Shown here: piece after piece, positions 194 to 43,181 of the stretch
Position numbering within the stretch: position 1 is the first letter of the stretch
Layout: the number at the start of each line of letters is the position of its first letter
Assembly: GCA_039934295.1 (NCBI GenBank)
Contig: JBDTMN010000005.1
Location: forward strand, 921-64,920
DNA length: 64,000 bases
DNA from: Candidatus Tayloriibacteriota bacterium
GTDB taxonomy: Bacteria; Patescibacteriota; Minisyncoccia; Phycocordibacterales; HO2-43-120
Direction of reading: 5' to 3'
Notes under the pieces: generated by a model
What the model was told of the DNA's origin: nothing
Databases searched by the model: none
What the model saw: only the letters and a program-made list of their open reading frames with translations
Made by a program: the position numbers and the translations under genes

Positions 194-575
194 AGATGAA
201 TACATAATTTTATGGTTAATTAATATTAAATGAAATTTATATTTTGGGAGTCAAGGAACGACCTTTTTTAAGATGGTCATACGACCATTGCTCCTTAGTA
301 AGAACTAAGGGTTACCTAAGGTCGCACCTTGACTCGAAGACGTTTATTTTTCTTCGACCACTCCCATAAGAGGGAGTCGTTATATACCAATGCGTGTATT
401 ATACATCAAAGAAATGCGCAATGGAAAGGGGATGTGGATAACCCGAGATTATGTAACATGTAACATATAACATGTAACATGAGAAAGAGGGGAAATTTCT
501 TTTTCAGACGCTTCGAAAGAGAAGATCAAGGCCCGACCTTTTTTGGGACTTAAGGTCGGGCCTAAAAGAGGAAGA

Positions 576-1778
576 CTACGCGGAGGAAATATTGTAAATA
601 GGGAGAAGGACGGAAGCGAGAAGAATTGCGACGCCCACTCCGAGTCCTACAATCATCACCGGCTCAATCAGGCCCACCATGGTGTCCACCGCAGTCGTAA
701 CTTCTCGACGGTAAAATTTGGCGAGATTTTCCAATATGCTCCCAAGCTCTCCGGACTCCTCTCCCACTTTCATCATTTGAATCAAGATACTCGGCATCTC
801 TTTGTATTTGCCCATTGAGACCGAAAGGGGGCTTCCACCTTTGACATCTTCATTCACCGCTAACAAAATCTTCTGGTAGTACTTGTTTCCCACCACGTCT
901 GCCGTAATCTCGAGCGCGTGGACGATTGGAATAGCGGACATGAGCATCGTGTTCAGGTTGTCGGCAATTCTTGAAAGGTAGAGCTTCTGATAAAGCGAGC
1001 CCAAATAGGGAACAGAAATTTTGAAACGGTCAAAAGCAAGCCCTCCTTCCTGAGTGCGAATGTATCGAATGAAGAAAAAGACGCCCACAATCAAAAAGAC
1101 GACAATAATAATGCCGTAATTGACGAAAAAATTGCTCAAGCCAATAACAATCTGGGTATAGATAGGAATCTGCTGACCCGACTCTACAATAATCGCGGTG
1201 ATTTTGGGAATGACGACCGTGAGCATCAAAATCATGACCGTCACAAAGGTAAAGATGACGAACCCCGGGTATATCAAAGCGCCTTTCACTTTTGAGGTTA
1301 CCTCGTAGGTGCGGTCGAGATAGTCGGCAAGGTAGCTGAATATCTGATTCAACTTGCCCGATTCCTCTCCGGAACGAATCATGCTGATGTAGAATGTGGA
1401 GAAGATTTTCGGGTGCTTTGCCATGGCGGCGGAGATAGAGCTCCCGCCCTGTATATCATCGGCAACCTTGCTCAATGTTTCCGACAAAAGATGGCTGTGC
1501 GCGTCCCCCGCGAGCAGTCTGAAGATGCGGAGCGCGGAGATTTGCGCTTCAAAAAGGGTCGCGAGCTGTCTTGAAAGGATGACGATGTCTTTGTTTGAAA
1601 CACGGTCAAGAAAAGCGATGTTTGTGCCCAAAGAAAATCCCTTTTCTTCCGGCTTGATGGAAGACACGGCAAGTCCCCGCCTCTGAAGCGAGCTTATTGC
1701 CACATCAATGTTGATGGCCTCGATCGCCCCGTCTCGCGGAACGCCTGTTGTATCGACTGATTTGTAGTTAAAAAGCAT
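576..1778 (-). CDS. pilC: type IV pilus assembly platform protein PilC (GspF family)
   Basis: ORF track 576..1826. Two GspF-type repeats, three TM segments, and a conserved ...GEESGKL... block in the second repeat. The start is moved to the internal ATG at 1776-1778 because the first 16 codons of the ORF translate the upstream repeat element. Confidence 0.85.
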   Translation of the reverse strand: MLFNYKSVDTTGVPRDGAIEAINIDVAISSLQRRGLAVSSIKPEEKGFSLGTNIAFLDRVSNKDIVILSRQLATLFEAQISALRIFRLLAGDAHSHLLSETLSKVADDIQGGSSISAAMAKHPKIFSTFYISMIRSGEESGKLNQIFSYLADYLDRTYEVTSKVKGALIYPGFVIFTFVTVMILMLTVVIPKITAIIVESGQQIPIYTQIVIGLSNFFVNYGIIIVVFLIVGVFFFIRYIRTQEGGLAFDRFKISVPYLGSLYQKLYLSRIADNLNTMLMSAIPIVHALEITADVVGNKYYQKILLAVNEDVKGGSPLSVSMGKYKEMPSILIQMMKVGEESGELGSILENLAKFYRREVTTAVDTMVGLIEPVMIVGLGVGVAILLASVLLPIYNISSA

Positions 1779-1780
1779 AA

Positions 1781-1876
1781 TTTCTATATCACTGAACTGA
1801 CTCGGACTAAGAACTCGGAACGACACGGAAAGGTTCCGATTCTGTTCCGTGCTCGAAGTCCGTGTTACTTCCGTGG
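1781..1876 (-). repeat. ~95-nt intercistronic repeat element, copy 1 (pilT stop to pilC start)
   Basis: Near-identical to 2942..3036, 3429..3525 and 7100..7195. Begins TCACTGAACTGACTCGGACTAAGAACTCGGAACGACACGGAAAGGTTCCG... on the plus strand. Confidence 0.8.
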
Positions 1877-2941
1877 TTATATCATTCTTTCAAGTGTCTT
1901 CGTGTTTAACGAATGCTGATAGGCGCTCTCGATGGTAATCTCGCCCGCTCGGACCAGATCCGCCAAGCTCCGGTTCATGTCTATCATTCCCAGCTCCAAG
2001 CCGGTTTCGATAACGGTATTCAGCTCGTGAGTCCTGTTTTCGCGAATGAGGTTCGAGACGGCGTTGTTCGCTATCAAAAGCTCGTAGGCAGGAATGAGGC
2101 CTCCAGAGATTCGCGGAATAAGTCTTTGGGAAAAAATGCCGGTCAAGCTCGATGCAAGCTGAATTCTAATCTGGCCCTGCTGTTCGGCAGGAAAAGAATC
2201 TATGATTCGGTTTATTGTTTGGGCGGCATTGTTGGTGTGAAGGGTAGAGAATACCAAATGCCCGGTTTCAGCGGCCGTAACGGCTGTAGCAATCGTTTCA
2301 ATCCCCCGCATCTCACCTATCAAAATCACATCCATGTCCTCCCTGAAGACGGAGAGAAGCGCGCTCTCAAAGTCTTTGGTGTCAAGCCTAACTTCCCTCT
2401 GGTCGATAATTGCTTTTTTCTGCTCGTAGATGTACTCGATGGGGTCTTCAATCGTGATGATGTGCTCCGCGCTCTCCTGATTGATCATCTCAATCATAGC
2501 GGCGAGAGTAGTGGACTTGCCGTGCCCCACCGGACCCACCACGAGAAAGAATCCCTGCTGTTTTCGGGTAAAATCTTCGAGTATCGGAGGAAGATTGAGC
2601 TCGGCTATGGTTTTTATTTTCCTTGGCACCAGCCGAAGAGCAAAGGCGATAGAACCTTGTTGGAAATACCCGTTTCCCCTAAAACGCCCGATATCTTTAT
2701 AGGAAAAAGAAAAATCAATCTCCTTGGTTTTCAAGAAAAGGTCTCGGTTTTCCGGAGTGAGAAGCTCGCGGACAAATCCGTCGGTATCCGCTTTGGTCAA
2801 GACCGATTTTTTGACGAGGGGAATCAGGAAGCTTGCCACGCGAATAGTCGGATGCCTGCCTTCGGAGAGGTGGATATCCGACGCCCCTTCCTTAATAACT
2901 ATGGATAATAAATCGTCTAATTCTGCTTTGAAGTCTGTCAT
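1877..2941 (-). CDS. pilT: twitching-motility ATPase PilT
   Basis: Walker A GPVGHGKSTT, Asp box, His box TLHTNNAAQTINRIID; length 354 aa typical of PilT. Confidence 0.9.
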   Translation of the reverse strand: MTDFKAELDDLLSIVIKEGASDIHLSEGRHPTIRVASFLIPLVKKSVLTKADTDGFVRELLTPENRDLFLKTKEIDFSFSYKDIGRFRGNGYFQQGSIAFALRLVPRKIKTIAELNLPPILEDFTRKQQGFFLVVGPVGHGKSTTLAAMIEMINQESAEHIITIEDPIEYIYEQKKAIIDQREVRLDTKDFESALLSVFREDMDVILIGEMRGIETIATAVTAAETGHLVFSTLHTNNAAQTINRIIDSFPAEQQGQIRIQLASSLTGIFSQRLIPRISGGLIPAYELLIANNAVSNLIRENRTHELNTVIETGLELGMIDMNRSLADLVRAGEITIESAYQHSLNTKTLERMI

Positions 2942-3036
2942 AATATTTCACTGAACTGACTCGGACTAAGAACTCGGAACGACACGGAAAGGTTCCGATT
3001 CTGTTCCGTGTTCGAAGTCCGTGTTACTTCCGTGGT
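2942..3036 (-). repeat. ~95-nt intercistronic repeat element, copy 2 (response-regulator stop to pilT start)
   Basis: Ends about 8 nt before the pilT ATG; same sequence family as copy 1. Confidence 0.8.
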
Positions 3037-3428
3037 TACTTTTTCTTTTCCTGAATAATTTTTTCGACTTCTGTTACCACTTCTGAAGGAATGGTGGTCG
3101 CTTTGACAATGTAGCCGTCGATGCCATATTTCTTCGCATTTTCGATGTCCTCCGATTGGCTCTGGTTGGAAAGAACGATAATGGCGGCGAGAGGTGCAAG
3201 ATGCAGTCTCCTCATCTCCTGCAGAAATTGAATGCCGTCAAGGTCAGGCATTACAATATCCACCGTAATCGCATCCGGCAAAAGTCCTTCTCGAAGTTTT
3301 CTTAAAGCATCATTGCCACCTGCCGATACAATCACGTTGAATCCTGCCTTCTTGAATTTTATGTCGTACATGCTTAAAAGAAATGCATCGTCGTCGATTA
3401 CTAAAATTGTTTTTTGTTTTGAGTCCAT
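3036..3428 (-). CDS. CheY-like response regulator receiver protein (PilH-like, receiver domain only)
   Basis: ILVIDDD...DIVMPDLDG with conserved phospho-acceptor Asp context; 130 aa, no output domain. Confidence 0.8.
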   Translation of the reverse strand: MDSKQKTILVIDDDAFLLSMYDIKFKKAGFNVIVSAGGNDALRKLREGLLPDAITVDIVMPDLDGIQFLQEMRRLHLAPLAAIIVLSNQSQSEDIENAKKYGIDGYIVKATTIPSEVVTEVEKIIQEKKK

Positions 3429-3525
3429 ATATATATTTCACTGAACTGACTCGGACTAAGAACTCGGAACGACACGGAAAGGTTCCGATTCTTCTGTGTT
3501 CAGAGTCCGTGTTACTTCCGCGTTT
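3429..3525 (-). repeat. ~95-nt intercistronic repeat element, copy 3 (pilB stop to response-regulator start)
   Basis: Same family; slightly diverged 3' part. Confidence 0.8.
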
Positions 3526-5239
3526 ATAACCTGTTCACTTCTTCAAACGGTATTTCTCTCTTGAATGCTTTAATAATAGCATCTTCTTTCATTGTAAGCA
3601 TCCCCTGCTCACGGCCGATTCTCTTGACTTCGCTTGCAGAAGGATTTTTCAGAATGACCGCCTCGAGCTCTTTACTCATTTGGAGGACTTCAACGACCGC
3701 CACTCGCCCGCTCGTGCCCTTCGGGTGTTCCGGTGTGGCGACTGCTTCGAATACATTGGCACCCATGGGAATTTCTTTCTTGAATATCTCCGGCAAGTCC
3801 TCAAATTCTTTCTCTATGAGAAGCTTGATACTCCCTTCGACAGGAATTTCTTTCCCAGCGCCTTCCGGCAACACTCGCGCCAATCTCTGGGCAATTGCGA
3901 GAATTAATGTCGGCGCAATCAAGAACGGGTCAACTCCAAAATCGAGCAGTCTGGGGATAACTCCTACGGCATTGTTGGTGTGAATGGTGGAGAGCACCAA
4001 GTGCCCAGTCAAGGCCGCCTGAACCGCAAGACCGGCCGTTTCTTTATCGCGAATCTCTCCCACCATGATGACATCTGGGTCCTGCCTCAAAGTCGTGCGA
4101 AGACCGGTGGCAAACGTGTAGCCGATTTCCGGAAGAACCTGCGACTGACTCATGCCCGGGATATTGTATTCCACAGGGTCCTCGAGGGAGAGCACGTTTT
4201 TGGTCTCTTTGTCCACCTCATTTAACATTGAGTAGAGTGTTGTAGACTTGCCCGAGCCCGTGGGGCCAGAAATTAAAATAAGGCCGTAGGGGCGCTTGAT
4301 GGCGTCAATGATGAGATTCAAATTGCGCGGAGTGAGCCCGAGCGCGTCCAGACGCTTCACTCCCTTTTCCGAATCGAGAATTCTCATCACCACCTTTTCT
4401 CCGTAATAAGAAGGGAAGGTCGAGACGCGAAAATCAATTTTCCTGTCCTCGATTTTCGCGCTGAAGCGACCGTCCTGCGGCTTCCTTTTTTCATCAAGCT
4501 TCATATTGGAAAGAATTTTGATTCTCGCCACCACCGCGGAATGGACTTTGACAGGTAGAACAATTGAGGTGTTGAGAATCCCGTCCACTCGGAAACGCAC
4601 ACGAATGTTTTCCGCCATATGCTCGATGTGAATGTCCGAAGCGTTGCCGGCAGTCGCGTAGTGGAGAATGGTGGCGACGATTTTGGTGACCGGAGCATCT
4701 TCGATAATGGTCGTCTTTCCTTTGGTCACTATAATATCTTCCTTCGGACTTTCCGGTTTTCCCTCCGTTGCAAGTTCTGTGTCAAGCTCAGTCAAAGCTT
4801 CCGTTACCTCTCCCGAGAGACCCTTGTACATTTCAATCACCCGGTCAAAATCTTGAGCCGAGACTAAAAAAAGTTTGAAAGGCAAGCTGACTTTTGAAGA
4901 GATGAAGGAAATGGCGTCCCGCGCTTCTATACTGTCTGGGTCAACGAGACCCACCTCCAAGACACCATCCGAAAGTCCTATCGGAACAAAACGATAGTAA
5001 GCGGCCGACTCCTCCGGCACGTATTTTAAAATCTCAAAAGGAATAACCAGATTTTTGAGGCTTCTTGACGGAATTCCCAAAGCTTCGCCCTTGTTCGTCA
5101 AAATGACCTCAGGGCTGACTCCCTTCGCAATCAAAATCTCCTCAATCGGTTTTCCTTTTTTTTCGGCCTGCTCCTTGATGGAAGAAATATCCTTCCGTTC
5201 AATGATTTTTTTTTCAGCCAAAACTTCTAATATACCCAT
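3524..5239 (-). CDS. pilB: type IV pilus assembly ATPase PilB (GspE family)
   Basis: N-terminal GSPII domain. Walker A SGPTGSGKSTTLYS, Asp/His boxes, 571 aa. Confidence 0.9.
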   Translation of the reverse strand: MGILEVLAEKKIIERKDISSIKEQAEKKGKPIEEILIAKGVSPEVILTNKGEALGIPSRSLKNLVIPFEILKYVPEESAAYYRFVPIGLSDGVLEVGLVDPDSIEARDAISFISSKVSLPFKLFLVSAQDFDRVIEMYKGLSGEVTEALTELDTELATEGKPESPKEDIIVTKGKTTIIEDAPVTKIVATILHYATAGNASDIHIEHMAENIRVRFRVDGILNTSIVLPVKVHSAVVARIKILSNMKLDEKRKPQDGRFSAKIEDRKIDFRVSTFPSYYGEKVVMRILDSEKGVKRLDALGLTPRNLNLIIDAIKRPYGLILISGPTGSGKSTTLYSMLNEVDKETKNVLSLEDPVEYNIPGMSQSQVLPEIGYTFATGLRTTLRQDPDVIMVGEIRDKETAGLAVQAALTGHLVLSTIHTNNAVGVIPRLLDFGVDPFLIAPTLILAIAQRLARVLPEGAGKEIPVEGSIKLLIEKEFEDLPEIFKKEIPMGANVFEAVATPEHPKGTSGRVAVVEVLQMSKELEAVILKNPSASEVKRIGREQGMLTMKEDAIIKAFKREIPFEEVNRL

Positions 5240-5346
5240 AGTGTATGACCTATAACTAATAACTGAATAACCGATAACAGAGTAAAATCATCGCGTTCTT
5301 TTCTGGTCATTCAGTTATTCAGTTATTCAGTTATGAGTTATCTGAC

Positions 5347-5688
5347 TCACCTCGTTTGTGTCGACGTCGATATCGGTTGGGAAAGGTTTCCAACTCCTAT
5401 TGGCGCGAAAGGATTACTTCTGCCTTGAGGCTCTGCGGTCACTTTTCGAGAAAAATCCTGGAGAGATAGAAAGGTCTTGGTTCGAAAAATTGTGTCGCTC
5501 ATCGTAATCGAGTTTACGGTCTGGAGCTCCGCAATAATATCCTTGCCCACAAGCGTCTGGGGCTGTCCCGATTGCTCTAAAGCATCCGAAGTGGAAGGAG
5601 TTCCCTTGTTCAAATACTTATAGCCGATAAAAACCAGAAGCAGGGCTATGAGGACTCCTATAATGATGGTTATTTTTTTAGTTGACAT
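5347..5688 (-). CDS. hypothetical small protein with an N-terminal TM anchor, inside the pilus operon
   Basis: 113-aa ORF with a hydrophobic N-terminus (IIIGVLIALLLVFIGY); no recognisable motif. Confidence 0.45.
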   Translation of the reverse strand: MSTKKITIIIGVLIALLLVFIGYKYLNKGTPSTSDALEQSGQPQTLVGKDIIAELQTVNSITMSDTIFRTKTFLSLQDFSRKVTAEPQGRSNPFAPIGVGNLSQPISTSTQTR

Positions 5689-5744
5689 CCGGTTAGAAGT
5701 TTATGCCTTAATAATTTTCTCTCATTTCTTGCTTTATTTCAATA

Positions 5745-5850
5745 TCCTGGATCCCTCCCCACTTTTGGAACAAACGATGTTCAAAAAATCAAAAGTGGGG
5801 AGGGATGACAAAATAAGAATTTTGTCACTTTTCACTTTCAACTTTTACTT
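5745..5850. repeat. two-hairpin repeat module (TGGATCCC-stem/loop-GGGATGAC-GACAAAATAAGAATTTTGTC-CACTTTTCACTTTCAACTTTT)
   Basis: Related copies at 40033..40105 and 41596..41668, and a partly related one at 26906..26975. The first stem differs between copies through compensatory changes. Confidence 0.7.
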
Positions 5851-6417
5851 AAGCCAGTACGTGCTCGCATTTACGGTAAAATCATACAGGGTGGAATCTT
5901 TCTCGACTGGCTTCAAGATGATGCTCGTCACATCAAGAATACGCAGACTTCTCTCTAAATCCGTAAGAAAATTGGAAAACTTATCGTATGAAGTCGTGAG
6001 AGTGAAAGACAGGCTCGCCTTGTCAAAATCGGTTTGCGCCTGACCCGTCGTACCCGTGGTGTCTGCAACCCCAGCAACTTTAGCGTCCTGCGGATTGGCC
6101 AATTTAACCGTTTTCACAAGAATACCGTGATTGTCAGCTATGCCGTTTAAATCCGATACCATTCGGACTGTGTCTACGTTGTCCGGCATGAGTTTCCCGA
6201 GTTTTTCCAGATTATCTTTCCCTATCGCCTCCTTCTTTTTCACCAGCCCATCACGGAGCGTTGTCAACTGTTTTGCTTTTTCGAGCGCATCCTGGTACAC
6301 GAGCACTTCTTTTTTCAAATCCAGATTTTTGGCGTACTGCCCGCGAATAAATCCGAAAAACAATCCAGCGGAGGCTAGTAAAAGGATAATTGGAGTTATG
6401 AGGCGGTTTGAGTACAT
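5845..6417 (-). CDS. PilO-like type IV pilus inner-membrane component
   Basis: N-terminal TM followed by a coiled-coil, 190 aa, in the pilM-N-O context; the family call rests on position and architecture. Confidence 0.55.
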   Translation of the reverse strand: MYSNRLITPIILLLASAGLFFGFIRGQYAKNLDLKKEVLVYQDALEKAKQLTTLRDGLVKKKEAIGKDNLEKLGKLMPDNVDTVRMVSDLNGIADNHGILVKTVKLANPQDAKVAGVADTTGTTGQAQTDFDKASLSFTLTTSYDKFSNFLTDLERSLRILDVTSIILKPVEKDSTLYDFTVNASTYWLK

Positions 6418-6421
6418 ATTA

Positions 6422-7099
6422 TTATCGTAAATTTGTTGTTGTCGCGGAAGAGGTCGTTGCTGTCCGCGTGGTGGAAGCTGTCGGGGAGACGATTGGGGAG
6501 ACTACCGGTGTTACTCCGGCCGAGCTAATCTTATACAGAAGCAAAGAAGGGTCAACGCTCATCTTAACTTTAAAGGAGACATTCCGGTTCTCGTCGAGGG
6601 CTAAGTCATAAAAAGAAGGGTTCTTGAACGCCTTTTGTTTTCTGAATATGTCTGACTGGAGAGTGACCGCATTAAAGCCTCTCCCTATGCCTTCCATGGA
6701 CACGTCGAAAGAACCCAATTTTTCATCGCCAAATTGAAATGTCTTGAACTGAACTGTCTGAAGGGTGAGACTTTGAAGGGCCTGAAAAAGCGAGGAAATT
6801 CCCGTATGACTTCCCAGAATTTTTTCAGCGATTTGAATTCTTTTGTCATCGCGCGCCAAATCGGCGATCAAAGCAGATTGAATGTTCTTTTGCTCCACGG
6901 CAAGCTTCTCGTCCATAACTTTAATATTATTTTTGAGATAGTAGTTGTACCCAAAGATTCCGATTGACCCAAGAAAGACTATGACGAAGAGAATTATCGA
7001 GATAAGCGAAAATAAGCCGACACTACTGCCACGGCTTCCTCCCCCGCTGTCCACAACAGGTTTTTTCGGGATAAATGATGCTTGTCCTCTTGGTTCCAT
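6422..7099 (-). CDS. PilN-like type IV pilus inner-membrane component
   Basis: Single TM after a short cytoplasmic N-terminus, then a periplasmic domain; immediately downstream of pilM. Confidence 0.55.
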   Translation of the reverse strand: MEPRGQASFIPKKPVVDSGGGSRGSSVGLFSLISIILFVIVFLGSIGIFGYNYYLKNNIKVMDEKLAVEQKNIQSALIADLARDDKRIQIAEKILGSHTGISSLFQALQSLTLQTVQFKTFQFGDEKLGSFDVSMEGIGRGFNAVTLQSDIFRKQKAFKNPSFYDLALDENRNVSFKVKMSVDPSLLLYKISSAGVTPVVSPIVSPTASTTRTATTSSATTTNLR

Positions 7100-7195
7100 A
7101 TATATTTCACTGAACTGACTCGGACTAAGAACTCGGAACGACGCTGAAGGGTTCCGATTCAGTTCCGTGTTCAGAGTCCTTGTTACTTCCGTGTT
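7100..7195 (-). repeat. ~95-nt intercistronic repeat element, copy 4 (pilM stop to pilN-like start)
   Basis: Same family as 1781..1876, with substitutions in the central hairpin region. Confidence 0.8.
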
Positions 7196-8327
7196 AATCT
7201 ACTTCCTGCAACTTTCGAAGCGCCAATCCAACCGCAACGGCAAACTCGGGACCAGCGGATTTCAAAATGTTCGCGAGAAACGCAGGTGCTTCCACTTTTG
7301 AAAAAGGGTCCGCCGAAATTACCTGTACTTGAAAAGCCTGCTCGGCCATTTTGAGAAATCCCTGCAACCCCGACCCTCCTCCCGTAAGAACGACCTTGCC
7401 AACATTTTTATTATACTTTTTCTGATAGCTTAATAATAATCTATTCGACTCGGAAAATATATAGTCAAGTGTTGATAACATTATGCCCTGCATATCCTTG
7501 TTTCCGCCACCAAGGTCGAGCCCCTTTGTTCGTTTCAGATTTTCGGCCTCTTCCACGCTTACCGACATCGCCCTGGCAATGCCCAATGTGAGGTCTTGGG
7601 AACCCCGGTCAATAATATGTGATGTCTTCAAAATGCCACGCTCGACAACATAGAGCTTGGTCGAACTTGCTCCCATGTCAAAAATCATAACCGGACTAAC
7701 CTCGGCATCGAGCACGGCTCGGATGGTGCTGAAAATCTCAATTTCAAAAAAGCTCGAATCAAGTTGCGAAAGACGAACGATTTCTCGCATGTCATTCAAA
7801 GCATCGTTGTGGATAACTACAAGAAGGACCTGGGTTTTCTCAAGTTTTTTTTGAAGCACCGGAGCGTTGTTTCCCTTGTCTCCCTGAATCTCTTCTTCCT
7901 CATTCCAGATTTTGTCCTCTCTCGGCAATATCCACCAATCGAGCGTAACTTCGGAGATAGAAACGGGAATATATTTTCTGGCCTCCAAGGGAATCATATC
8001 CGCTATCTGCTTTTGATCCGTAGTCGGCACCTCAATCAAACTAATTAAGCTCGAAGACATCGAAATAGAAATGCCGCACTTTTTTGTCGTCGCATTCGCC
8101 TCCTTTAATATATCGTTCAGAGCTTCAGCAACTTTCCCAGGCGGAAGGTGAGTCGCCCGTCCCACTTCGAGCCCGGCATAGGGACCAAGGGCAAGAGCGC
8201 CGTATGTTTCCAAAACGGCTTTTCCTTTCTCTTTTCGAAGCTGGACGAGCTTGATTGAGGAAGGTCCGATGTCCACCCCGAGGACGCTTCGGTCATTTTT
8301 TTTAAATAATTTCGATAAAAATGACAT
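7194..8327 (-). CDS. pilM: type IV pilus assembly protein PilM (actin-like ATPase fold)
   Basis: LGVDIGPSSIKLV... and MIFDMGASSTKLYVV blocks typical of PilM/FtsA-like proteins; 377 aa. Confidence 0.85.
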   Translation of the reverse strand: MSFLSKLFKKNDRSVLGVDIGPSSIKLVQLRKEKGKAVLETYGALALGPYAGLEVGRATHLPPGKVAEALNDILKEANATTKKCGISISMSSSLISLIEVPTTDQKQIADMIPLEARKYIPVSISEVTLDWWILPREDKIWNEEEEIQGDKGNNAPVLQKKLEKTQVLLVVIHNDALNDMREIVRLSQLDSSFFEIEIFSTIRAVLDAEVSPVMIFDMGASSTKLYVVERGILKTSHIIDRGSQDLTLGIARAMSVSVEEAENLKRTKGLDLGGGNKDMQGIMLSTLDYIFSESNRLLLSYQKKYNKNVGKVVLTGGGSGLQGFLKMAEQAFQVQVISADPFSKVEAPAFLANILKSAGPEFAVAVGLALRKLQEVD

Positions 8328-8475
8328 GAGTATTGGTAGGTGCTAGGTTTAAGCTGTTAGGTGTAAGTATGAACAAAAAAGAAAGTGAGAATCTTTATCA
8401 AATTTTCTTAAGCTAACACCTTACACCTCGCACCTCAAACCTGCTGACTATACATGATATGATTATAGCACTATT

Positions 8476-9144: not shown

Positions 9145-9239
9145 GGAAAGGTGTTAGGTGTTAGCTATTAGCTGTTAGCTTTTCGAAAGAGAAGAAAAAA
9201 TGGAGAGAAAAAGAAAAATGTGATACATTACGTTCAAAT

Positions 9240-9784: not shown

Positions 9785-10447
9785 ATGCCCAAAATTAAGG
9801 ATATACCAAAATTTGATAGACCTAGAGAGAAACTGGAAAAATATGGTTCAGGAAAATTATCTGATGCTGAACTTTTAGCAATTCTACTTCGAACAGGTAC
9901 GAGAGATTTAAATGTTTTAAAATTAGCTCACAAGATTTTGCAAAAATTTGAAAAAGAAAAATTTGTCAATATAACAATTGATGAATTGAAGACCATTCAT
10001 GGATTAGGTCCAGTAAAGGCTTGTGAGATTATTGCTTGTTTCGAGTTAGGAAAACGTATGTTGAAAGGCAAAAAATCATCAATTTTACTTTCTTCTAAAG
10101 ATGTTTGGGAACGGATGGAAGATATTAGAGGGAGCAAAAAAGAGCATTTTGTAGTTTTTTATTTGGATAGTAGAAACCAAGAAATACAGAGAGAAATTAT
10201 CTCAGTAGGGACTCTCAATGAGAGTTTGGTTCATCCCCGAGAGGTTTTTGAGGGTGCAATCAAAAATAACGCTTCCTCGATTATTATTGCTCATAATCAC
10301 CCTTCAGGAGATTTGGGGCCATCTGAAGCTGATATTGAGATAACAAAAAAATTAATCCATGCTGGAAAAATTCTAGATATCAAGGTTGCTGATCATGTAA
10401 TTGTCTCCAGCTCATCTTTTATGGGTTTTATTGCAAATATCGTATGA
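9785..10447 (+). CDS. radC: RadC-like JAB/MPN domain protein
   Basis: C-terminal JAMM motif HNHPSGD...SEAD plus an N-terminal helix-hairpin-helix region; 220 aa. Confidence 0.8.
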   Translation: MPKIKDIPKFDRPREKLEKYGSGKLSDAELLAILLRTGTRDLNVLKLAHKILQKFEKEKFVNITIDELKTIHGLGPVKACEIIACFELGKRMLKGKKSSILLSSKDVWERMEDIRGSKKEHFVVFYLDSRNQEIQREIISVGTLNESLVHPREVFEGAIKNNASSIIIAHNHPSGDLGPSEADIEITKKLIHAGKILDIKVADHVIVSSSSFMGFIANIV

Positions 10448-10896
10448 AAATAAAAAGTGACAAAAAAGCTAAAGAAGAATTTGCAGAAATTCTTAAAACT
10501 AGAGGTTATTCTGATGTGCGGATAGTAAAGCAACCAGCTGATATTACTGCTATAAAAAATGATACAACATATTTTTTTGAGATTAAAAAAACTTCTGCGA
10601 AGAAGGAGTATTTTGGTGCAGCGACACTTACGGAATGGAGAGCTGCATATGAAAATCCCAATAGTTATTTTTTTGTTATAGCACAAGAGATACCAGAAGG
10701 TTTTAATTTTATTGAGTATACTCCTGATGAATTTGAGAAATTCTCATCTATTCCTCCTTTTAAAATATTTTTCAACATACCTTTAAATGGAAATAACAAA
10801 GTTGAAACAAGAAGGAAAAATAGGTCTGCAATTCAATTTATGAGAGAAAAATTGATAAAATTGGACGAGATATTTTCAACTTTTAAAAATGGCTAA
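10444..10896 (+). CDS. hypothetical protein with a possible PD-(D/E)xK nuclease-like core
   Basis: ADITAIKNDTTYFFEIKKT fits a D...ExK arrangement. Overlaps its neighbours by 4 and 8 bp, which suggests one operon with radC and the endonuclease. Confidence 0.4.
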   Translation: MKIKSDKKAKEEFAEILKTRGYSDVRIVKQPADITAIKNDTTYFFEIKKTSAKKEYFGAATLTEWRAAYENPNSYFFVIAQEIPEGFNFIEYTPDEFEKFSSIPPFKIFFNIPLNGNNKVETRRKNRSAIQFMREKLIKLDEIFSTFKNG

Positions 10897-12286
10897 AATA
10901 TATCAAACAAAAGAACAAGTCTTGGAAAAAGCAGAAACAATTTTGCATAAATCTTTGCGTGAGGTTATTTCCTTAGAATCACTTGGAATTATTGAGACCC
11001 AAATTGGAGAATATGGAATGAAGCGCAAAGGATTTTTGGGTGATTTGATAGAAAAATACTTTTTTGATATTAACCCCGGAAATATTAGTGAGCCAGATTT
11101 TAAAATTGCAGAGGTTGAACTTAAAACTACTCCACTAAAGAAACATGGCAATAAAAAATTAGTTTCGAAGGAAAGATTAGTTTTCTCAATGATTAACTAC
11201 GACACTGTCGTGAATGAAACATGGAAGCTAAGCTCTTTCTTAAAAAAGAACAGGTCATTATTATTGATGTTCTACTTATGGATGGAAAATAGGAGTATTC
11301 TTGATTATGAATTTAAATTTGTTCATCTATTGAATTTGCTAGAAGATATTTCTAGTGAAGATTTTTTTCAAATTCAAAAGGATTGGGAGTATATTGTTTC
11401 AAAAATAAAACGAGGAGAAGCACATCTTTTATCTGAAGGCGACACTTACTATCTCGGTGCTTGTACGAAGGCGGCGAATAGTCGAGTTGTAAGAGATCAA
11501 CCAATGAATCGTATGCCCGCAAAACCCCGTGCATTTTCTTTCAAACAACAATATATAAATTATCTGATCCAAACAAAGCTACTTGGCGAAAAAACAAACA
11601 CAGACTCAATTTTTAAGAAACAGAGACGAATTGAGACTATAGAAGATTTAATTAAGGAAAAGTTTTCTGCGTTTATAGGAAAAACTGACAAAGAAATACT
11701 TAATAAACTTGGCTCAAATCTCGGCACAAAAGCAAAAAGCTATAAGAGATTGATTGTTAATAGGATTCTTGATGTTAATTCAAATAACATCGAAGAGCTA
11801 GAAAAAGCCAATATAACTCTTAAGGTAATAACACTTGAACATAGTGGGACACTTAAAGAATCTATGTCATTCCCTGCATTTGATTACAAAGATTTAGTAA
11901 CTCAAATTTGGAATGATGACGAAGAAGAATCAATGGCTGATTTTCACCTACAACTTGAAACTAAAAAATTCTTGTTTGTTGTGTTTCAAAAACAGAAAGG
12001 AAGTGACGACATAATACTCAAAAAAACTATGTTCTGGAATTTTCCAATGAAAGATATTTCTGAGGCGGAGAACGTTTGGCAAAAAACAATTGATTGTATT
12101 AATGATGGTAGGTACGATAAATTACCAAAACTCAAAGATAGTCATGTGGCACATGTTCGTCCTCATGGAAAAGACTCGACCGATACAATTGCAACACCTC
12201 AAAATACACAGGAAATGAAGCGCTGTTTTTGGCTTAATGCTAAATATATACAACAAGCCATAGAAAACAAAAAAGATCAAGGTTGA
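10889..12286 (+). CDS. Sau3AI/MutH-family restriction endonuclease (candidate GATC-specific type II REase)
   Basis: N-terminal region matches the MutH/Sau3AI catalytic signature, including the EVELKT block that resembles MutH. Length 465 aa is similar to the two-domain Sau3AI; it sits next to a C5 methyltransferase. Confidence 0.55.
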   Translation: MAKIYQTKEQVLEKAETILHKSLREVISLESLGIIETQIGEYGMKRKGFLGDLIEKYFFDINPGNISEPDFKIAEVELKTTPLKKHGNKKLVSKERLVFSMINYDTVVNETWKLSSFLKKNRSLLLMFYLWMENRSILDYEFKFVHLLNLLEDISSEDFFQIQKDWEYIVSKIKRGEAHLLSEGDTYYLGACTKAANSRVVRDQPMNRMPAKPRAFSFKQQYINYLIQTKLLGEKTNTDSIFKKQRRIETIEDLIKEKFSAFIGKTDKEILNKLGSNLGTKAKSYKRLIVNRILDVNSNNIEELEKANITLKVITLEHSGTLKESMSFPAFDYKDLVTQIWNDDEEESMADFHLQLETKKFLFVVFQKQKGSDDIILKKTMFWNFPMKDISEAENVWQKTIDCINDGRYDKLPKLKDSHVAHVRPHGKDSTDTIATPQNTQEMKRCFWLNAKYIQQAIENKKDQG

Positions 12287-12317
12287 TCAATTTGTTGCTA
12301 TTTGCTATAATTACCTC

Positions 12318-13595
12318 ATGAAGAAAATACGAGTTGCTGAATTATTTGCAGGTGTGGGTGGGTTTAGAATTGGCCTGGAATCTGCTGCAAAAAAACAAAA
12401 AAACCTTAAATATGAGGTTGTCTGGAGTAGTCAGTGGGAACCGGGTGCAACCACTCAACACGCATCAGAAATATATGAGTTAAATTTTGGTAAAGATGGA
12501 CATTCAAATGAGGATATCCAAGAGGTCATCGCAAATAAATTTCACGAGATTCAAGATCACGATTTGCTCGTTGGCGGATTCCCTTGTCAGGATTATTCCG
12601 TCGCAAGAACACTAAGCCAAGCTAAAGGATTAGAGGGAAAAAAGGGGGTACTCTGGTGGTCAATTTATAATATCCTCAAAAAAAAAGGGAAAAATGCTCC
12701 CGGTTTTCTTATGTTGGAAAATGTTGACCGTCTTTTAAAATCACCATCTGGCCAGAGAGGTCGTGATTTTGCAGTTATGCTCTCATCTCTTAATAATTTA
12801 GGATACATCGTCGAATGGCGAGTAATAAATGCGGCCGAGTATGGAATGCCTCAAAGAAGAAGAAGAGTCTATATCCTAGGATATAAGAAAGGAACAAATA
12901 TTTACAAAAAAATTAAAGCCGAAAAAAATAAGGAAAAATGGATAAATAATGACGGAGTCATTGCAAAAGTTTTTCCTGTAAAAAATACAATTACCAGCAA
13001 TAACAGATTTTTCTTAGAGAAAGATTTAGTGAGACTATCTAAAAATTTTTCACTGGGTAAATCAACGAAAAGTCCTTTTGAAATCGCAGGCATTATGATT
13101 GACGGAGATGTTTACACACACAGAGTTACTCCTGAGTACAACGGCAACCTTACTACCTTAAGAGACCTTGTTGAGTCTGATGAGAAAAAGATTCCAAAAG
13201 AATTTTTTATTGATACTAAAGATATGCCTATGTGGAAATATCTTAAAGGAGGGAAAAAAGAAGCCCGAAAAAGTAAAAATGGATTCACCTATGATTATTC
13301 TGAGGGTGCTATGGTTTTCCCCGACTCATTAGAAAAACCATCTAGAACTATAGTGACTGGAGAAGGCGGTTCTTCACCTTCAAGATTTAAGCATGTAATA
13401 AAGACAAAATCAGGAAGTCTCCGCAGGTTAATACCGAAGGAGCTTGAAAAATTAAATATGTTTCCAGAGGGTCACACAGAAAAAATGCTCAATGGGAAAC
13501 TGACTCCTGACATAAAACGTGCTTTCATCATGGGTAATGCCCTTGTCGTCGGCGTAATAGAAAAATTGGGAAAATCTTTGGCTATGTTTCTGTAG
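12318..13595 (+). CDS. DNA (cytosine-5)-methyltransferase
   Basis: Motif I FAGVGGFRIG, motif IV GFPCQDYS, motif VI ENV, motif X GNALVV. Confidence 0.85.
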   Translation: MKKIRVAELFAGVGGFRIGLESAAKKQKNLKYEVVWSSQWEPGATTQHASEIYELNFGKDGHSNEDIQEVIANKFHEIQDHDLLVGGFPCQDYSVARTLSQAKGLEGKKGVLWWSIYNILKKKGKNAPGFLMLENVDRLLKSPSGQRGRDFAVMLSSLNNLGYIVEWRVINAAEYGMPQRRRRVYILGYKKGTNIYKKIKAEKNKEKWINNDGVIAKVFPVKNTITSNNRFFLEKDLVRLSKNFSLGKSTKSPFEIAGIMIDGDVYTHRVTPEYNGNLTTLRDLVESDEKKIPKEFFIDTKDMPMWKYLKGGKKEARKSKNGFTYDYSEGAMVFPDSLEKPSRTIVTGEGGSSPSRFKHVIKTKSGSLRRLIPKELEKLNMFPEGHTEKMLNGKLTPDIKRAFIMGNALVVGVIEKLGKSLAMFL

Positions 13596-13959
13596 GAGAT
13601 GAATTTTAAAATAATCTTGATGCTTTGTATAATCTGACAGAGAAGTCCGCCTTCGGCAAGGACCGTCCTTGACATAGATTTGTCGAGCTTGATACTTCTG
13701 ACAACTTTCTCAGCCTATACTCGGCACCTTCAATCATGGAAGAGTAAGCAAAATTAGACCACACTTTTCAAAATAGAAAGGGCACCTTTCTATTACCTTT
13801 CTATTACTGAACGTGCGGTTCAGAATCTTCGTTGGGATTTCGTTCCATATCTACTAACAAAAGTCAGTAAACTTAGGAACGTTTCTTATTAAGTTGTAAG
13901 GTAACTATAGCAAAATACACCTAAAAGAACAGGTTTTTTAGCTTCCGTGAATATAGAAA

Positions 13960-15240: not shown

Positions 15241-15275
15241 ATAGTTGTATGCCTATTTTAGCAAATATAGGTATT

Positions 15276-15746: not shown

Positions 15747-15847
15747 AGAGATTAAGCAGTTATATCAGCGGTTTCCTTAGATAGTTTAGGTATATAAAAA
15801 TAATTTGATGGCACTACCCAATAGGTTCTAATGTCATCTACTACCCT

Positions 15848-15900
15848 CCGCCCATACAAAAAACGAGCACTCTGGAGGTGCTCGTTTTTTGTATGGGCGG
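15848..15900. terminator. bidirectional intrinsic terminator
   Basis: CCGCCCATACAAAAAACGAGCAC-tctggag-GTGCTCGTTTTTTGTATGGGCGG. A 23-bp stem with A and T runs on both sides, downstream of the large minus-strand gene. Confidence 0.7.
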
Positions 15901-30246: not shown

Positions 30247-30343
30247 CCACCACGTAGCCAGGTACTTTTCAATCTCGCAGACTCGATAATGAAAAGTCTT
30301 TCGAGTCCCTCACAGAAGCCAAGCAGTTGGCTTCTTCTTGCGG

Positions 30344-30416
30344 TGCGCGCGGAGGGACTCGAACCCCCGACCGATCGAGTATAAGTCGACTGCTCTACCA
30401 ACTGAGCTACGCGCGC
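30344..30416 (-). tRNA. tRNA-Ile (anticodon UAU)
   Basis: Hand-folded cloverleaf: acceptor GCGCGCG/CGCGCGC, D-stem GCTC/GAGC, anticodon loop CTTATAC, T-loop TTCGAGT, discriminator A. No encoded CCA. Confidence 0.65.
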
Positions 30417-32465: not shown

Positions 32466-32554
32466 AGTTATTGGATTGTAACACAAAAGCTTACACGTGT
32501 AACGCTTCCGGAAAAAAGAAAAAGCAGGGTGATTAGGCCTGCTTGTTTTTTTCG

Positions 32555-33445: not shown

Positions 33446-33793
33446 GAGTGACCTTTCTATTTGTACTATTTTCGAACAGTCTCGCGACTCAAACGAAACA
33501 AGCCCCGCTTTAGGGCTTGTTTTTATCATCATTATGAGTCGGCGTGGGAAATTAATAACAAAAACAAACCCTAAAGTGAGTTGAGATTTTCTTGTCCTTC
33601 TTTACATTTTGTACCTGTATTCGATTCATTGCGTATACTCTATATGAACTCAATAAAATAATCAAGGAGCAATGAGTGTAACGCGCAGCGTGTAACGTGT
33701 AACGTCTGAGAAAAACAATTACCTTTCCTCTCATGTTGCACTTCTGATTCCATGCATTTTGCGCTACACTTCAGATACTGTTATGATTTTTCC

Positions 33794-34245: not shown

Positions 34246-34650
34246 GGGGATGATCGGTCTAGACAGCTGATTTACTCTCAAATATGCAAAGTAGAGCACC
34301 GTTACCTCTTAAATCTGACGGAAATTCTAAGCGCAAAAAACTTAGTTACAAGAGCAAAATTAGCCGTTTCTCCCTATTTTAGGGCAAACGACTTTGCTTT
34401 CGCTTACGCTTTAGCCTAAGCGACGCTTCATATCCCAACTTCCGATAGGGATACGTAAGTGTAATATATTCGGAATGGGATAGATGGTCGTCTCGCTCTC
34501 TATCCGAAACTAAGAGACTCGATCACTACATATTTTGTTTGCTTTAAGCGCAGTGATTTAAATCTGCTTCGGCAGGAAAAAACAGACTACACTTTGTAGA
34601 AATATTAGAGAGCGTCAGTTGCACCCGAGTTCGATTCTCGGCATCTCCAC
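34246..34650 (+). ncRNA. ssrA: tmRNA (ssrA), tag peptide ANDFAFAYALA
   Basis: 5' GGGGATG pairs with 3' CATCTCC+A. T-arm GAGTTCGATTCTC. Internal reading frame GCAAACGACTTTGCTTTCGCTTACGCTTTAGCCTAA. Directly follows smpB. Confidence 0.8.
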
Positions 34651-34669
34651 AAAAATAACGAGCTCTCTT

Positions 34670-34786
34670 AGAGCGACTATATTTTTGTAGGACTCAGTTT
34701 TCGTTTCGAAAACGGAGTATCACAAAAGAGCGACTATATTTTTGTAGGACTCAGTTTTTGTCTTCAAAAACTGAATATCACAAAAT
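34670..34786 (+). repeat. two tandem ~57-nt repeats, each with a hairpin
   Basis: AGAGCGACTATATTTTTGTAGGACTCAGTTTT(c/t)G...CACAAA occurs twice. Confidence 0.7.
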
Positions 34787-37338: not shown

Positions 37339-37573
37339 AAAATTAAATCATCTGACTTGCCATATTGATATCGGAATTATAGGGATTTTAGGAGAAAAAG
37401 CAACCGCATTCGTGTAATGTAAAACGTGTGAAGCGACGCACTTTAAGTTGGCTAATTCCAGAAATAACCCCACTTGCTGTTCACGAGCTCAGCGCCTTTT
37501 TGATGACCTTTCCGGGTTTCATCTGGACTCGTCCCTAATCACATTATACTATTTTTTCCGGATTTCCCACTTC

Positions 37574-41438: not shown

Positions 41439-41595
41439 TATCGATAAGTATAAAGTTGAACGTGTAAAGTATAAAGTAGAGAGATAGAGGTAAAACAAAT
41501 GTACAACTAAAAGCGGACCGAGTCAATGCTTTATGGATTAGTGCCGGATTGCTATCATGTGTAGTAAGACTCCTTTGCCTTTTTTTATTCAAATG

Positions 41596-41668
41596 ACTGG
41601 ATCCCCGCTAAGCGGGGATGACAGAATGAGAATTCTGACACTTTACACTTTTTACTTTCAACTAAATT
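41596..41668. repeat. two-hairpin repeat module, copy 3
   Basis: CTGGATCCCCGCTAAGCGGGGATGACAGAATGAGAATTCTGACACTTTACACTTTTTACTTTCAACT. Confidence 0.7.
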
Positions 41669-41679
41669 ACATGCCTCCC

Positions 41680-41727
41680 AAAAAAAAACTTCTCTACATA
41701 ATCACCAAAAGCAACTGGGGCGAGGCG
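41680..41727 (+). pseudogene. duplicated fragment of the GT4 gene 5' end
   Basis: About 44 nt (AAAAAAAAACTTCTCTACATAATCACCAAAAGCAACTGGGG) are identical to the start of 41958..43181. Confidence 0.55.
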
Positions 41728-41957
41728 TCGCAGCAAAGCCTGCTCCTTAGAAACCCACGGTTTCTAAACCCTGTTTTTCGAAACTCAAAACAGGTCTTCC
41801 TTACAGGAACAGTACACCTTTTGGACAATTCAGAAATTGTCTCAAAAGGTCTTGCGAAGCTCCATGTGTTCGCTTCTCACCGCCACGGGAAAACTACAGT
41901 TTTCCCGACCCCTTTCGCCCGCCCCTCCCCAGTTGTATATTCAACTTAAATTATCCA

Positions 41958-43181
41958 ATGGACACTGGAAACAAAAAAAAACTTCTCTACATAATCACCA
42001 AAAGCAACTGGGGAGGGGCTCAAAGATATGTGTTCGACCTCGCTTCTGCTTTCAAAGAAGAATATGACATAGTAGTCGCTTTTGGAGGCGCGGGAGTTCT
42101 CAAAACCAAATTGGAAGCCGTGGGAATTCAGACGGTCAGTATTCCCTTCTTAGAAAGAGACACGAATCTTTCGGGGGACGCCAAAGTTTTCATCGAACTT
42201 TTTAAACTTGTTTTTTCACTTCGCCCTAACATCGTCCATCTCAACAGTTCAAAAATCGGTGGCCTCGGAGTTCTCGCTGCCCGTCTCTGCAATTTTATAA
42301 TTTATCTTCTTAAGACGTTACACGTTACACGTTACACGTTACACCCTATTCGTATCATCTTCACCGCCCACGGGTTCGCCTTCAATGAAAATCGGGGGCA
42401 GGTATCGAAACATGTCATGAAAATTCTGTACTGGATTATCATCTTCTTTTCACATAAAACAATTGCCGTTTCAGAATCTTTGGCGCACCAGATGAAAAAC
42501 ATGTTTTTCACCCGCGACAAAATAGTCATTATCCACAATGGGATTTCCAAAATTCGTTTTATCGCAAAGGGGCAGGCACAGAAATTTTTTATCGAAAAAA
42601 GTCAGATAGTGAGGGAATTTTTCGGTTTGGATGAGAAAAAAATAAAAAAGACTCTGTGGATTGGAACCATTTCTGAACTCCACAAAAGCAAGGGACTCGA
42701 ATACTGCATTGAGGCTCTCTCACTATTTAAAAATCACTACCCCTCATTTGTTTTTCTTATTATCGGAGATGGGGAAGAGAAAGAGAACCTCGAGAAGCTC
42801 ATTAAAAGTAAGGGCCTAGAAAATCACGTGGTCCTTCTAGGAACAATCGAAAATGCGGCGCTCTATCTCAAGGCATTCGACATTTTTACCCTCACTTCTA
42901 CTACCGAGGGACTGCCGTATGCGATTCTTGAAGCGGGACAGACAGAACTTGCGGTCATTGCAAGCAACGTGGGAGGGATTCCAGAAATTATTGAACAACT
43001 GCAGTCCGGAATATTGGTTCGGTCAAAACATGTCAAAGAAATACAAGATGCTCTCCTATTTTTGCTGGAGAATAAAGACAAAAAGAGAGAGATGAAACAA
43101 AATCTTAAAGCTAGAATTGAAAGCAAATTTATCCTTCAAAAAATGATTGATGCGACAAAAAGAGTATACGAAAACAAATAA
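41958..43181 (+). CDS. glycosyltransferase family 4
   Basis: GT-B fold, 407 aa. N-terminal block ITKSNWGGAQRYVFDLA, a C-terminal glycosyltransferase region, and the conserved E...E context. Confidence 0.75.
   Translation: MDTGNKKKLLYIITKSNWGGAQRYVFDLASAFKEEYDIVVAFGGAGVLKTKLEAVGIQTVSIPFLERDTNLSGDAKVFIELFKLVFSLRPNIVHLNSSKIGGLGVLAARLCNFIIYLLKTLHVTRYTLHPIRIIFTAHGFAFNENRGQVSKHVMKILYWIIIFFSHKTIAVSESLAHQMKNMFFTRDKIVIIHNGISKIRFIAKGQAQKFFIEKSQIVREFFGLDEKKIKKTLWIGTISELHKSKGLEYCIEALSLFKNHYPSFVFLIIGDGEEKENLEKLIKSKGLENHVVLLGTIENAALYLKAFDIFTLTSTTEGLPYAILEAGQTELAVIASNVGGIPEIIEQLQSGILVRSKHVKEIQDALLFLLENKDKKREMKQNLKARIESKFILQKMIDATKRVYENK

Follow-up and report, generated by a model that had tools for sequence, protein, structure and literature searches.

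Tandem repeats with a seven-nucleotide unit have been described from several bacterial groups. Heptanucleotide simple sequence repeats (SSRs) are, in the part of the earlier work relayed by later papers, the most abundant class with long units (5-11 nucleotides, nt) in many prokaryotes, with polymerase slippage put forward as their origin (Mrazek 2007, via PMC4679880 and PMC4692102). The intergenic DNA of Xanthomonas and Nostoc is strongly enriched in heptameric SSRs, some of them reported as inverted pairs (PMC4692102). In the Beggiatoaceae, TAACTGA repeats of 2-6 copies are mostly intergenic and lie just upstream of start codons that lack a ribosome-binding site (RBS), with further occurrences in cyanobacteria and Bacteroidetes (MacGregor 2015, PMC4679880). 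Here we describe tandem arrays of the heptamer RTGTAAC in a 64,000-nt stretch of DNA, termed the window, from a Candidatus Tayloriibacteriota bacterium (Patescibacteriota; GenBank assembly GCA_039934295.1, contig JBDTMN010000005.1, positions 921 to 64,920 of the forward strand). These arrays probably belong to a genome- and lineage-wide population of short slippage-type heptamer and octamer repeats of 3-5 units, and the arrays of the window are best read as a Patescibacteria instance of an already known heptanucleotide repeat type. By analogy they would resemble the short tandemly repeated repetitive (STRR) sequences of cyanobacteria and the TAACTGA repeats of Beggiatoa, possibly shaped by selection at the RNA level.

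Arrays were detected by reading the sequence and with Tandem Repeats Finder (TRF), and the chance expectation was taken from second-order Markov shuffles. The window contains 19 arrays of period 7 and 8 of period 8 compared with 1.77 and 1.47 expected, and period 7 is the dominant excess, periods other than 7 and 8 showing little or none. With a strict match criterion four period-7 arrays are counted in the window compared with 0.0 in 20 Markov shuffles. After rotation and reverse complementation the units fall into the families GTTACAC/GTTACAT, to which RTGTAAC belongs, GTTAGCT/GTTAGGT/ATTAGCT (termed D3, with 8 copies), TAAAGTTA, TAACTGA(A), GATTCAR and TCACYTT. Only one of the 17 window arrays outside the rRNA lies in coding sequence, that within the gene of a GT4-family glycosyltransferase, though 83% of this DNA is coding (p = 7e-12). 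Rfam places no RNA family over any array, and the sole match on an array hairpin, a sub-threshold let-7 hit, is noise. The excess over composition, the mostly non-coding location, the presence of several unit families and the same pattern in relatives are all features of the long-SSR and STRR type. The likeness to the heptanucleotide SSRs lies in head-to-tail 7-nt units above chance, mainly intergenic and with a scattered phylogeny, whereas the differences are the host group, the very short tracts (3-5 units) and the AT-rich units. The cyanobacterial STRR sequences of Calothrix, Anabaena and Nostoc similarly comprise several intergenic heptamer families per genome, in another phylum and with other units. 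Within the paper collection used here, a full-text search returned no paper joining heptamer, tandem repeats and Parcubacteria.

The first-pass annotation had proposed five RTGTAAC arrays, upstream of the pilin, ftsH, smpB and secD genes and inside the GT4 gene. The sequence at these positions is as follows.

451-481, unstranded: tandem array ATGTAAC x4.4 with one unit ATATAAC, 91% matches (TRF and reading).
33676-33705, unstranded: tandem array GTGTAAC x4.3, three units being exact and one, GCGCAGC, degenerate (TRF and reading).
42315-42344, plus strand: perfect in-frame array ACGTTAC x4.3 within the GT4 gene, 100% matches (TRF and reading).
32475-32503, minus strand: putative sigma-70-like promoter, not an array, composed of GTTACA, a spacing of 17 nt and TG-TACAAT (read from the sequence).
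37411-37433, unstranded: weak resemblance to RTGTAAC, not an array, 73 nt upstream of the secD start (37338).

Three of the five are therefore arrays, and two are not, as the ftsH site (32476-32506) holds one exact RTGTAAC unit and the secD site none. The genes had been assigned broadly correctly (pilin ATG at 193, smpB start at 33794 and the GT4 open reading frame, ORF). The first array lies between the stop of pilC (576) and the ATG of the pilin gene (193, minus strand), about 258 nt upstream of the latter and 95 nt downstream of pilC, and is placed 24-54 nt upstream of a promoter-like -35 element, corresponding to about -60 to -90 relative to the putative pilin promoter. The second is in the spacer of the divergent dapA and smpB genes and covers positions 89-118 nt upstream of smpB (ATG at 33794). 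The promoter-like sequence of ftsH is located about 10 nt upstream of the ftsH ATG (32464) and overlaps a 12-bp palindrome, TTACACGTGTAA, which is present once in the window. Exact RTGTAAC matches number 17 in the window with 10 of them inside the three arrays, and the 7 remaining singletons show no enrichment over the 8.4 expected for the whole window. The three arrays are real but had been treated as one special motif standing alone, yet they make up only about 10% of the larger population of 7- and 8-nt arrays.

The same population is present in related genomes. A GT4-based scan yielded 80 loci of GTDB species representatives, all Parcubacteria/Patescibacteria, and most of these keep the secD-GT4-ftsW-VWA gene order. 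In the set used for array counts (82 loci, 1.01 Mb of other Parcubacteria, with a minimum of 3 copies per array) period-7 arrays number 64 compared with 4.2 expected and period-8 arrays 21 compared with 2.4, concentrated in 30 loci, with none in the other 52. Units recurring across these genomes are GCTA[AC]A[AG], TAGGT[GT]G, AAGTAT[AC], TAAAGTTA and CTACACG. A scan of metagenomes for (GTTACAC)x3 matched at least 120 contigs, and the 80 that were fetched span 33-70% GC and carry 213 period-7 arrays in 522 kb. Arrays of the GTTACAC family in these contigs typically have 3-6 copies, often form inverted pairs and fall outside ORF proxies in 67 of 91 cases. The unit is thus not specific to one lineage or to a regulator of that lineage. 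A cyanobacterial origin of the contigs was considered and rejected, as none of the 80 reaches the HIP1 density typical of many cyanobacteria, and tblastn found no GT4 orthologue with a GTTACAC unit among the contigs of the metagenome scan.

The smpB array could not be followed by synteny in the 82 GT4-centred loci, in which smpB, ftsH and dapA do not occur, and the comparison was made with SmpB homologues. The array is missing upstream of smpB in the three closest relatives (SmpB 71-77% identical), all of which carry heptamer arrays elsewhere. Two of the three keep the core promoter-like sequence at the smpB ATG, an extended -10-like element TGYTATGMT located 6-7 nt before the ATG in the window (33770-33793) and in relatives L206 and L207. 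From the closeness of this conserved element to the ATG the smpB transcript appears to be leaderless.

These comparisons bear on the proposal that one DNA-binding regulator recognizes (A/G)TGTAAC and co-regulates pilin, ftsH, smpB, secD and GT4. Such a regulator would account for the occurrence of one 7-mer at three loci, including two upstream of genes, and for the palindromic half-unit pair at the ftsH promoter, but we consider it highly improbable. Two of the five sites are not arrays, single RTGTAAC units are not enriched, and the distances to start codons and promoters do not agree (about 258 nt, 89-118 nt and intragenic), so that there is no consistent promoter position. Arrays are found upstream of genes, downstream of genes and inside rRNA, in both orientations, and at least five other unit families share the same architecture. 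Nor is the array conserved upstream of orthologous genes, being absent from the three SmpB relatives even where the core promoter is kept next to the ATG, while orthologous GT4 arrays use other units and the RTGTAAC unit itself recurs in contigs of 33-70% GC. Contiguous 7-bp phasing moreover puts successive sites on different faces of the helix, unlike known direct-repeat operators.

A further motif, GGAGCAATRG, occurs at 285-294 (minus), 27393-27402 (minus) and 33666-33675 (plus) and within a 48-nt tandem duplication at 58879-58979, and in the duplication and at 285 it is followed by TCGTATGAC. One of these occurrences falls in the stretch of about 200 nt that separates the putative pilin promoter from the pilin ATG, and two more are intergenic as well. 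The motif may represent a small RNA or leader motif.

The alternative raised by the first-pass annotation, a slippage-prone repeat, fits the period-7 excess, the near-exclusion from coding DNA and the copy differences between long arrays. In three pairs of 100%-identical contigs the short arrays (3-5 units, and one of 14) have equal copy numbers, and the TRF tables give the same result for a fourth pair that shares about 10 kb at 90% identity or more. At one locus a TTACACG array has 13 units in contig L114 (11195-11286) and 37 in L143 (3238-3500) with flanks 99.9-100% identical, and another long array has 28.9 compared with 30.9 units between contigs, differences that are either real variation or assembly collapse. 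This behavior agrees with length-dependent slippage and suggests that tracts of 4 units are fairly stable.

The array within a gene deserves separate description.

41958-43181, plus strand: GT4-family glycosyltransferase gene carrying the in-frame array.

The array is at codon phase 0 and encodes TLHVTRYTLH (amino acids 120-129). In the AlphaFold model (mean predicted local distance difference test score, pLDDT, 88.7) residues 121-131 are coil and the block 121-130 has the lowest confidence (63), and the array is modeled as a surface loop of low confidence. The loop is short and lacks an insert in about 60 of 75 GT4 homologues. Seven homologues, including that of the window, have heptamer arrays at exactly the same point.

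Window: TTACACG x4.
L001: CTTCACG-like x5, degenerate.
L003: SCTAAAC x4, degenerate.
L015: CTAAMAG x4.4, degenerate.
L025: GCTACAA x4.7, perfect.
L081: degenerate array.
L009: inverted pair, in frame.

The loops of the window, L001 and L003 are equal in length (27 codons) and register, and the units differ between lineages and are alike within each array. Units that are lineage-specific yet alike within an array point to homogenization by concerted evolution and not to simple decay. In a neighbor-joining tree the array-bearing genes occupy at least four places, and the tree is star-like and poorly resolved on one versus several origins. The array is probably an old in-frame insertion homogenized within each lineage. 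A 48-nt copy of the 5' end of the gene, 96% identical, is present in the divergent spacer between the Bac_transf and GT4 genes (41679-41726 compared with 41972-42019). The ORF at 41557-41949 was considered as a second array-bearing GT4 paralogue and rejected, containing only an 18-amino acid remnant of the GT4 N terminus, KKKLLYIITKSNWG.

The frame-shift arithmetic proposed for this tract is correct, in that a change of 1-2 units in either direction truncates the protein at 138-158 amino acids and a change of 3 units keeps the frame, and the array could in this way switch the gene off. A phase-variation switch would toggle a surface-glycosylation enzyme by slippage in GT4, and the array upstream of the pilin gene would tune pilin transcription by analogy with hmw1A of Haemophilus influenzae, in which 7-bp repeats lie upstream of the gene in a phase-variable contingency locus (PMC8262952). 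Common to both are a unit of 7 nt, a location within or close to genes for surface structures and, for GT4, the frame-shifting arithmetic. The perfect GT4 tract, the persistence of a heptamer array at the loop in several lineages and the variation of long arrays of the same unit between near-identical contigs are in keeping with a switch. Against it, copy-number polymorphism is demonstrated for the contingency loci, whereas the GT4 tract has only 4.3 units read from one contig of an organism sampled once (a single member on a single contig makes up the GT4 protein cluster). The orthologous arrays are mostly degenerate and would be poorly mutable, all 80 of the 80 GT4 homologues sampled matched over nearly their full length, the short arrays are invariant in near-identical contig pairs, and similar arrays adjoin housekeeping genes (smpB, tRNA-Ser and rRNA). 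A switch of this kind is an unlikely explanation of the arrays.

In the favored reading, that of a slippage-derived population, the placement of the arrays relative to genes carries further information. Those nearest to gene ends in the window are the following.

59872-59906, minus strand: array with ACACCTA x5 as its sense strand; 4-5 nt separate it from the ATG of a 220-amino acid ORF (TRF).
61487-61514, minus strand: array with AGCTAAT x4 as its sense strand; 4-5 nt separate it from the ATG of a 161-amino acid ORF (TRF).
41446-41478, minus strand: array AAGTATA x4.7, 6 nt upstream of the probable ATG of the Bac_transf gene (41440) (TRF).
62745-62759, minus strand: short array GTTATTA x2.1, which precedes a 219-amino acid ORF with 2 nt between it and the ATG (TRF).
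9152-9180, plus strand: array TGTTAGC x4.1, 7-8 nt after the stop of a phosphoribosyltransferase (PRTase) gene and 60 nt before tRNA-Ser (TRF).
5825-5850, unstranded: array TCACTTT x3.9 at the pilO stop (TRF).
8335-8378, unstranded: degenerate array of the GTTAGGT/GTTAGCT family (a D3 member) upstream of pilM.

Arrays end 2-12 nt before the ATGs of hyp220, hyp161, hyp219, VWA, pilB and Bac_transf. Shine-Dalgarno (SD)-like 4-mers lie upstream of only 2 of 43 window genes compared with a background of 13%. When the window and related loci are pooled (100 non-rRNA arrays, with crude ORF proxies defined by an ATG start and at least 70 amino acids), 23 arrays fall within ORF proxies compared with 74% coding DNA, 17 precede an ATG by no more than 12 nt and about 11 follow a stop by no more than 12 nt. 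On the sense strand arrays near starts have more C than G (13 versus 4) and those near stops more G than C (8 versus 2; Fisher p = 0.007). The three RTGTAAC arrays fall outside the start-codon pattern, being 89-258 nt from the nearest start or intragenic. Positional conservation upstream of the VWA gene was also considered and was rejected, since arrays at about 7 of 60 syntenic loci were judged no more than the base rate of array-bearing genomes.

The comparison with the TAACTGA repeats is close for part of the population. TAACTGA(A) arrays are themselves present at 5252-5334, immediately 5' of pilB, and copy number, intergenic location, position before starts without an RBS and orientation bias are all similar. 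The pre-start, RBS-less placement is found for the arrays at 59872, 61487, 45762, 41446 and 62745, whereas the RTGTAAC arrays have another unit and do not end near a start codon. The systems differ in that one unit is dominant and related heptamers are rare in Beggiatoa, whereas many families and inverted pairs are present here.

Many arrays form inverted pairs predicted to fold as long hairpins (z -3.8 to -8.9). Those outside the rRNA region are listed first and are followed by those of the 23S rRNA region, which was mapped onto Escherichia coli 23S positions.

5245-5340, minus strand: inverted pair TAACTGA(A)/TYAGTTAT (5309-5334 and 5252-5271), predicted hairpin -32.5 kcal/mol, z -7.9.
45755-45845, minus strand: inverted pair TAGCTRT/AGCTAAT, predicted hairpin -41.6 kcal/mol, z -8.1.
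61665-61765, minus strand: imperfect inverted pair AGGTGTT x4.3 and CTTTCAC x3.3, z -3.8.
57215-57360, minus strand: hairpin of about 140 nt formed by TAAAGTTA/TAACTTTA octamer arrays, 5' of 23S, -58.5 kcal/mol, z -8.9.
55620-55765, minus strand: copy of the 140-nt hairpin in 23S helix 45 (E. coli 1163-1223).
47730-47875, minus strand: copy of the 140-nt hairpin in 23S helix 98 (E. coli 2782-2829), -60.6 kcal/mol, z -8.8.
47505-47650, minus strand: diverged fourth copy of the 140-nt hairpin just 3' of the 23S end, z -5.5.
56375-56500, minus strand: expansion hairpin of TAAGTTR/AAACTTAC arrays in 23S helix 25 (E. coli 540-559), z -7.5.
56770-56915, minus strand: 23S expansion at E. coli 281-305, a hairpin of GATTCAA/TGAATCY arrays, z -4.8.
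54610-54712, minus strand: 23S expansion at E. coli 1854-1882 with a palindromic TGAATCA array.
52404-52438, unstranded: array TTAGCTT x5 at the 3' edge of an insertion or intron at E. coli 2262 of 23S.

The first hairpin ends 8 nt before the pilB ATG and the second 10 nt before the ATG of the VWA gene. The rRNA-region arrays are mostly in expansion hairpins, and two others are at insertion edges (E. coli 2262 and 2598). Three of the four copies of the 140-nt element have a mean column identity of 87%, and the four copies suggest a common processing cassette or a mobile element resembling the 23S intervening sequences (IVS). Like known IVS, the extended hairpins here are found at helices 25 and 45 (E. 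coli 540-559 and 1163-1223), and the helix-45 IVS of Coxiella has tandem heptamers in 2 or 3 copies depending on the strain (PMC4990558). The hairpins differ in having no ORF and in having arms that are themselves tandem arrays. The STRR sequences, as Vioque reportedly described in 1997, also occur within a variable helix of RNase P RNA, which would parallel the 23S expansion hairpins.

The 23S gene itself is stretched to about 10 kb (47100-57203, minus strand) and has insertions near E. coli positions 1917, 1951, 2262, 2449-2475, 2500-2511 and 2593-2600. Of five segments with a match to the group I intron model, one exceeds the gathering score and four fall short of it. ORFs of 160-201 amino acids are present inside the insertions. 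Another hairpin repeat, of about 95 nt, occurs in the pilus region at 1770-1900, 2929-3059, 3419-3549 and 7088-7218, its end being 5-12 nt from the ATG that follows (those of pilC, pilT, a receiver-domain gene and a 225-amino acid ORF). Its 41-nt core is 100% identical in three copies, and two diverged copies of the core inside 23S insertions (54838-54878 and 55143-55183) bring the total to six.

An explanation that overlaps with the favored one is that most arrays are maintained as functional elements at the RNA level. G-poor arrays at starts would be unstructured ribosome landing or translation-enhancer leaders, or binding sites of the S1/Csp type, and the inverted pairs would be RNase III-type processing sites or stabilizing hairpins that cut polycistronic and pre-rRNA transcripts. 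The arrays and hairpins ending 2-12 nt before ATGs, the strand bias near starts and stops (p = 0.007) and the depletion of SD sequences (2 of 43 genes) agree with this, as do the recurrence of the 140-nt hairpin 5' of 23S, in helices 45 and 98 and 3' of 23S and that of the 95-nt hairpin directly upstream of four pilus-gene ATGs. In relative L206 a pair of AGCTAA-type arrays lies 5 nt before the rplT ATG, and an analogous function has been proposed for the TAACTGA repeats (PMC4679880). Many arrays are, however, far from any start codon, among them the RTGTAAC arrays at 89-258 nt from the nearest start or inside a gene; the units are too diverse for one binding protein, and the proximity to start codons is partly due to short intergenic spacers. 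As an account of most arrays, function at the RNA level is possible but on the doubtful side.

The repeated hairpins could alternatively be small mobile palindromic elements, such as miniature inverted-repeat transposable elements (MITE), repetitive extragenic palindromic (REP) sequences or IVS-like elements, that copy array hairpins into new sites, among them rRNA helices and, in frame, genes, in the manner of the Rickettsia elements. Rickettsia palindromic elements insert in frame in genes, and the GT4 protein loop likewise tolerates an in-frame repeat, although the GT4 insert is an array in one orientation and not palindromic, that of L009 excepted. The four copies of the 140-nt hairpin, three of them with the mean column identity of 87%, the six copies of the 41-nt core and the inverted array pair in frame in the L009 loop are what such elements would produce. 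On a contig of a close relative (L205, 1398-2081) a 227-amino acid ORF has a weak match to Y1 transposases (IS200/IS605 type) and is a possible mobilizer of hairpin repeats. However, by inspection the three RTGTAAC arrays have no shared flanks, no inverted partner and no signatures of mobile elements, the array families have only the unit in common, and in the window neither target-site duplications nor a transposase came to light. Identical hairpins could equally well result from gene conversion within the rRNA operon, and we judge mobile elements to be quite unlikely as the source of the arrays.

The slippage-derived population is the reading we favor. In this reading arrays would arise and be remodeled by slipped-strand mispairing in replication and would persist only where a 7-nt periodicity is harmless, namely in intergenic spacers, in variable rRNA helices, where they would be kept only as inverted pairs preserving a hairpin, and in one GT4 surface loop. 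Selection at the RNA level may overlie this mutational origin, as suggested by arrays near start and stop codons in a genome without SD sequences, the strand bias and the hairpins 8-10 nt before an ATG or at 23S expansions. We infer both the slippage origin and the selection from the observed existence, excess and location of the arrays, from their predicted folding and from the comparison across genomes. Several points weigh against this reading. Slippage at the 4-unit arrays of this organism would be an event read from their sequence and not one observed, and the short arrays are unchanged in three 100%-identical contig pairs and, by TRF, in a fourth. GTTACAC, GCTAAMA and TAACTGA recur in unrelated genomes, which pure random slippage does not predict and which hints at sequence preference, binding or transfer. 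Slippage gives no reason why the period should be 7, and the start-codon and orientation statistics are post hoc and come from small numbers and crude ORF calls.

A more speculative extension, which we consider improbable as a whole, is that in SD-less Patescibacteria the arrays and paired-array hairpins form a cis-element expression system. The pairs would act as RNase III-type cassettes that yield short-leader or leaderless mRNAs and fragment or process the 23S rRNA, the G-poor arm at the ATG would be a ribosome landing site, and in-frame arrays of the GT4 type would persist through reversible on/off switching of surface glycosylation.

The genes of the window, annotated with Pfam, are arranged as follows.

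1-8327: type IV pilus cluster.
30.5-37.3 kb: ftsH, dapA, smpB, transfer-messenger RNA (tmRNA), secF and secD.
39-43 kb: glycan cluster (epimerase, Bac_transf and GT4).
After the glycan cluster: ftsW, the VWA-domain gene and DUF1189.
After DUF1189, minus strand: 5S and 23S rRNA.

Other repeats are present among these genes. Five copies of a repeat centered on the palindrome CCAAGGGTWACCCTTGG are found at 62035-62070, 62754-62831 and 63816-64000, in the spacers around the DUF6159 gene and the 219-amino acid ORF. A 57-nt unit is repeated twice with 91% matches at 34670-34785, directly 3' of the tmRNA gene (34246-34652). Two copies of a 97-nt segment, 95% identical (19764-19860 and 22946-23042), overlap the starts of two giant surface-protein genes (1288 and 884 amino acids) and look like a duplicated 5' end with its leader. 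The block at 10000-16000 has a low GC content (32-36% compared with about 45% elsewhere) and encodes a NOV_C-domain protein, a MutH-like endonuclease, a C5 cytosine methyltransferase and two unknown ORFs, and it looks like an acquired restriction-modification island. A tRNA-Ile with the anticodon TAT, an uncommon bacterial way of reading AUA codons, is located at 30342-30416 on the minus strand.

The result removes a tempting but wrong inference of a regulon joining pilin, ftsH, smpB, secD and GT4. Hairpin pairing that includes rRNA expansions, the strand bias at start codons without SD sequences and the persistent in-frame array of GT4 make the arrays of moderate interest. The reduced genomes of the candidate phyla radiation join cyanobacteria, Xanthomonas and Beggiatoaceae in showing the heptanucleotide-repeat phenomenon, and in them heptamer repeats shape rRNA expansion segments, the leaders in intergenic DNA and, in GT4, the loop of a protein. 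The orientation bias, the hairpins before ATGs and the lineage-specific GT4 units provide handles on why 7-nt repeats are favored and on whether they act.

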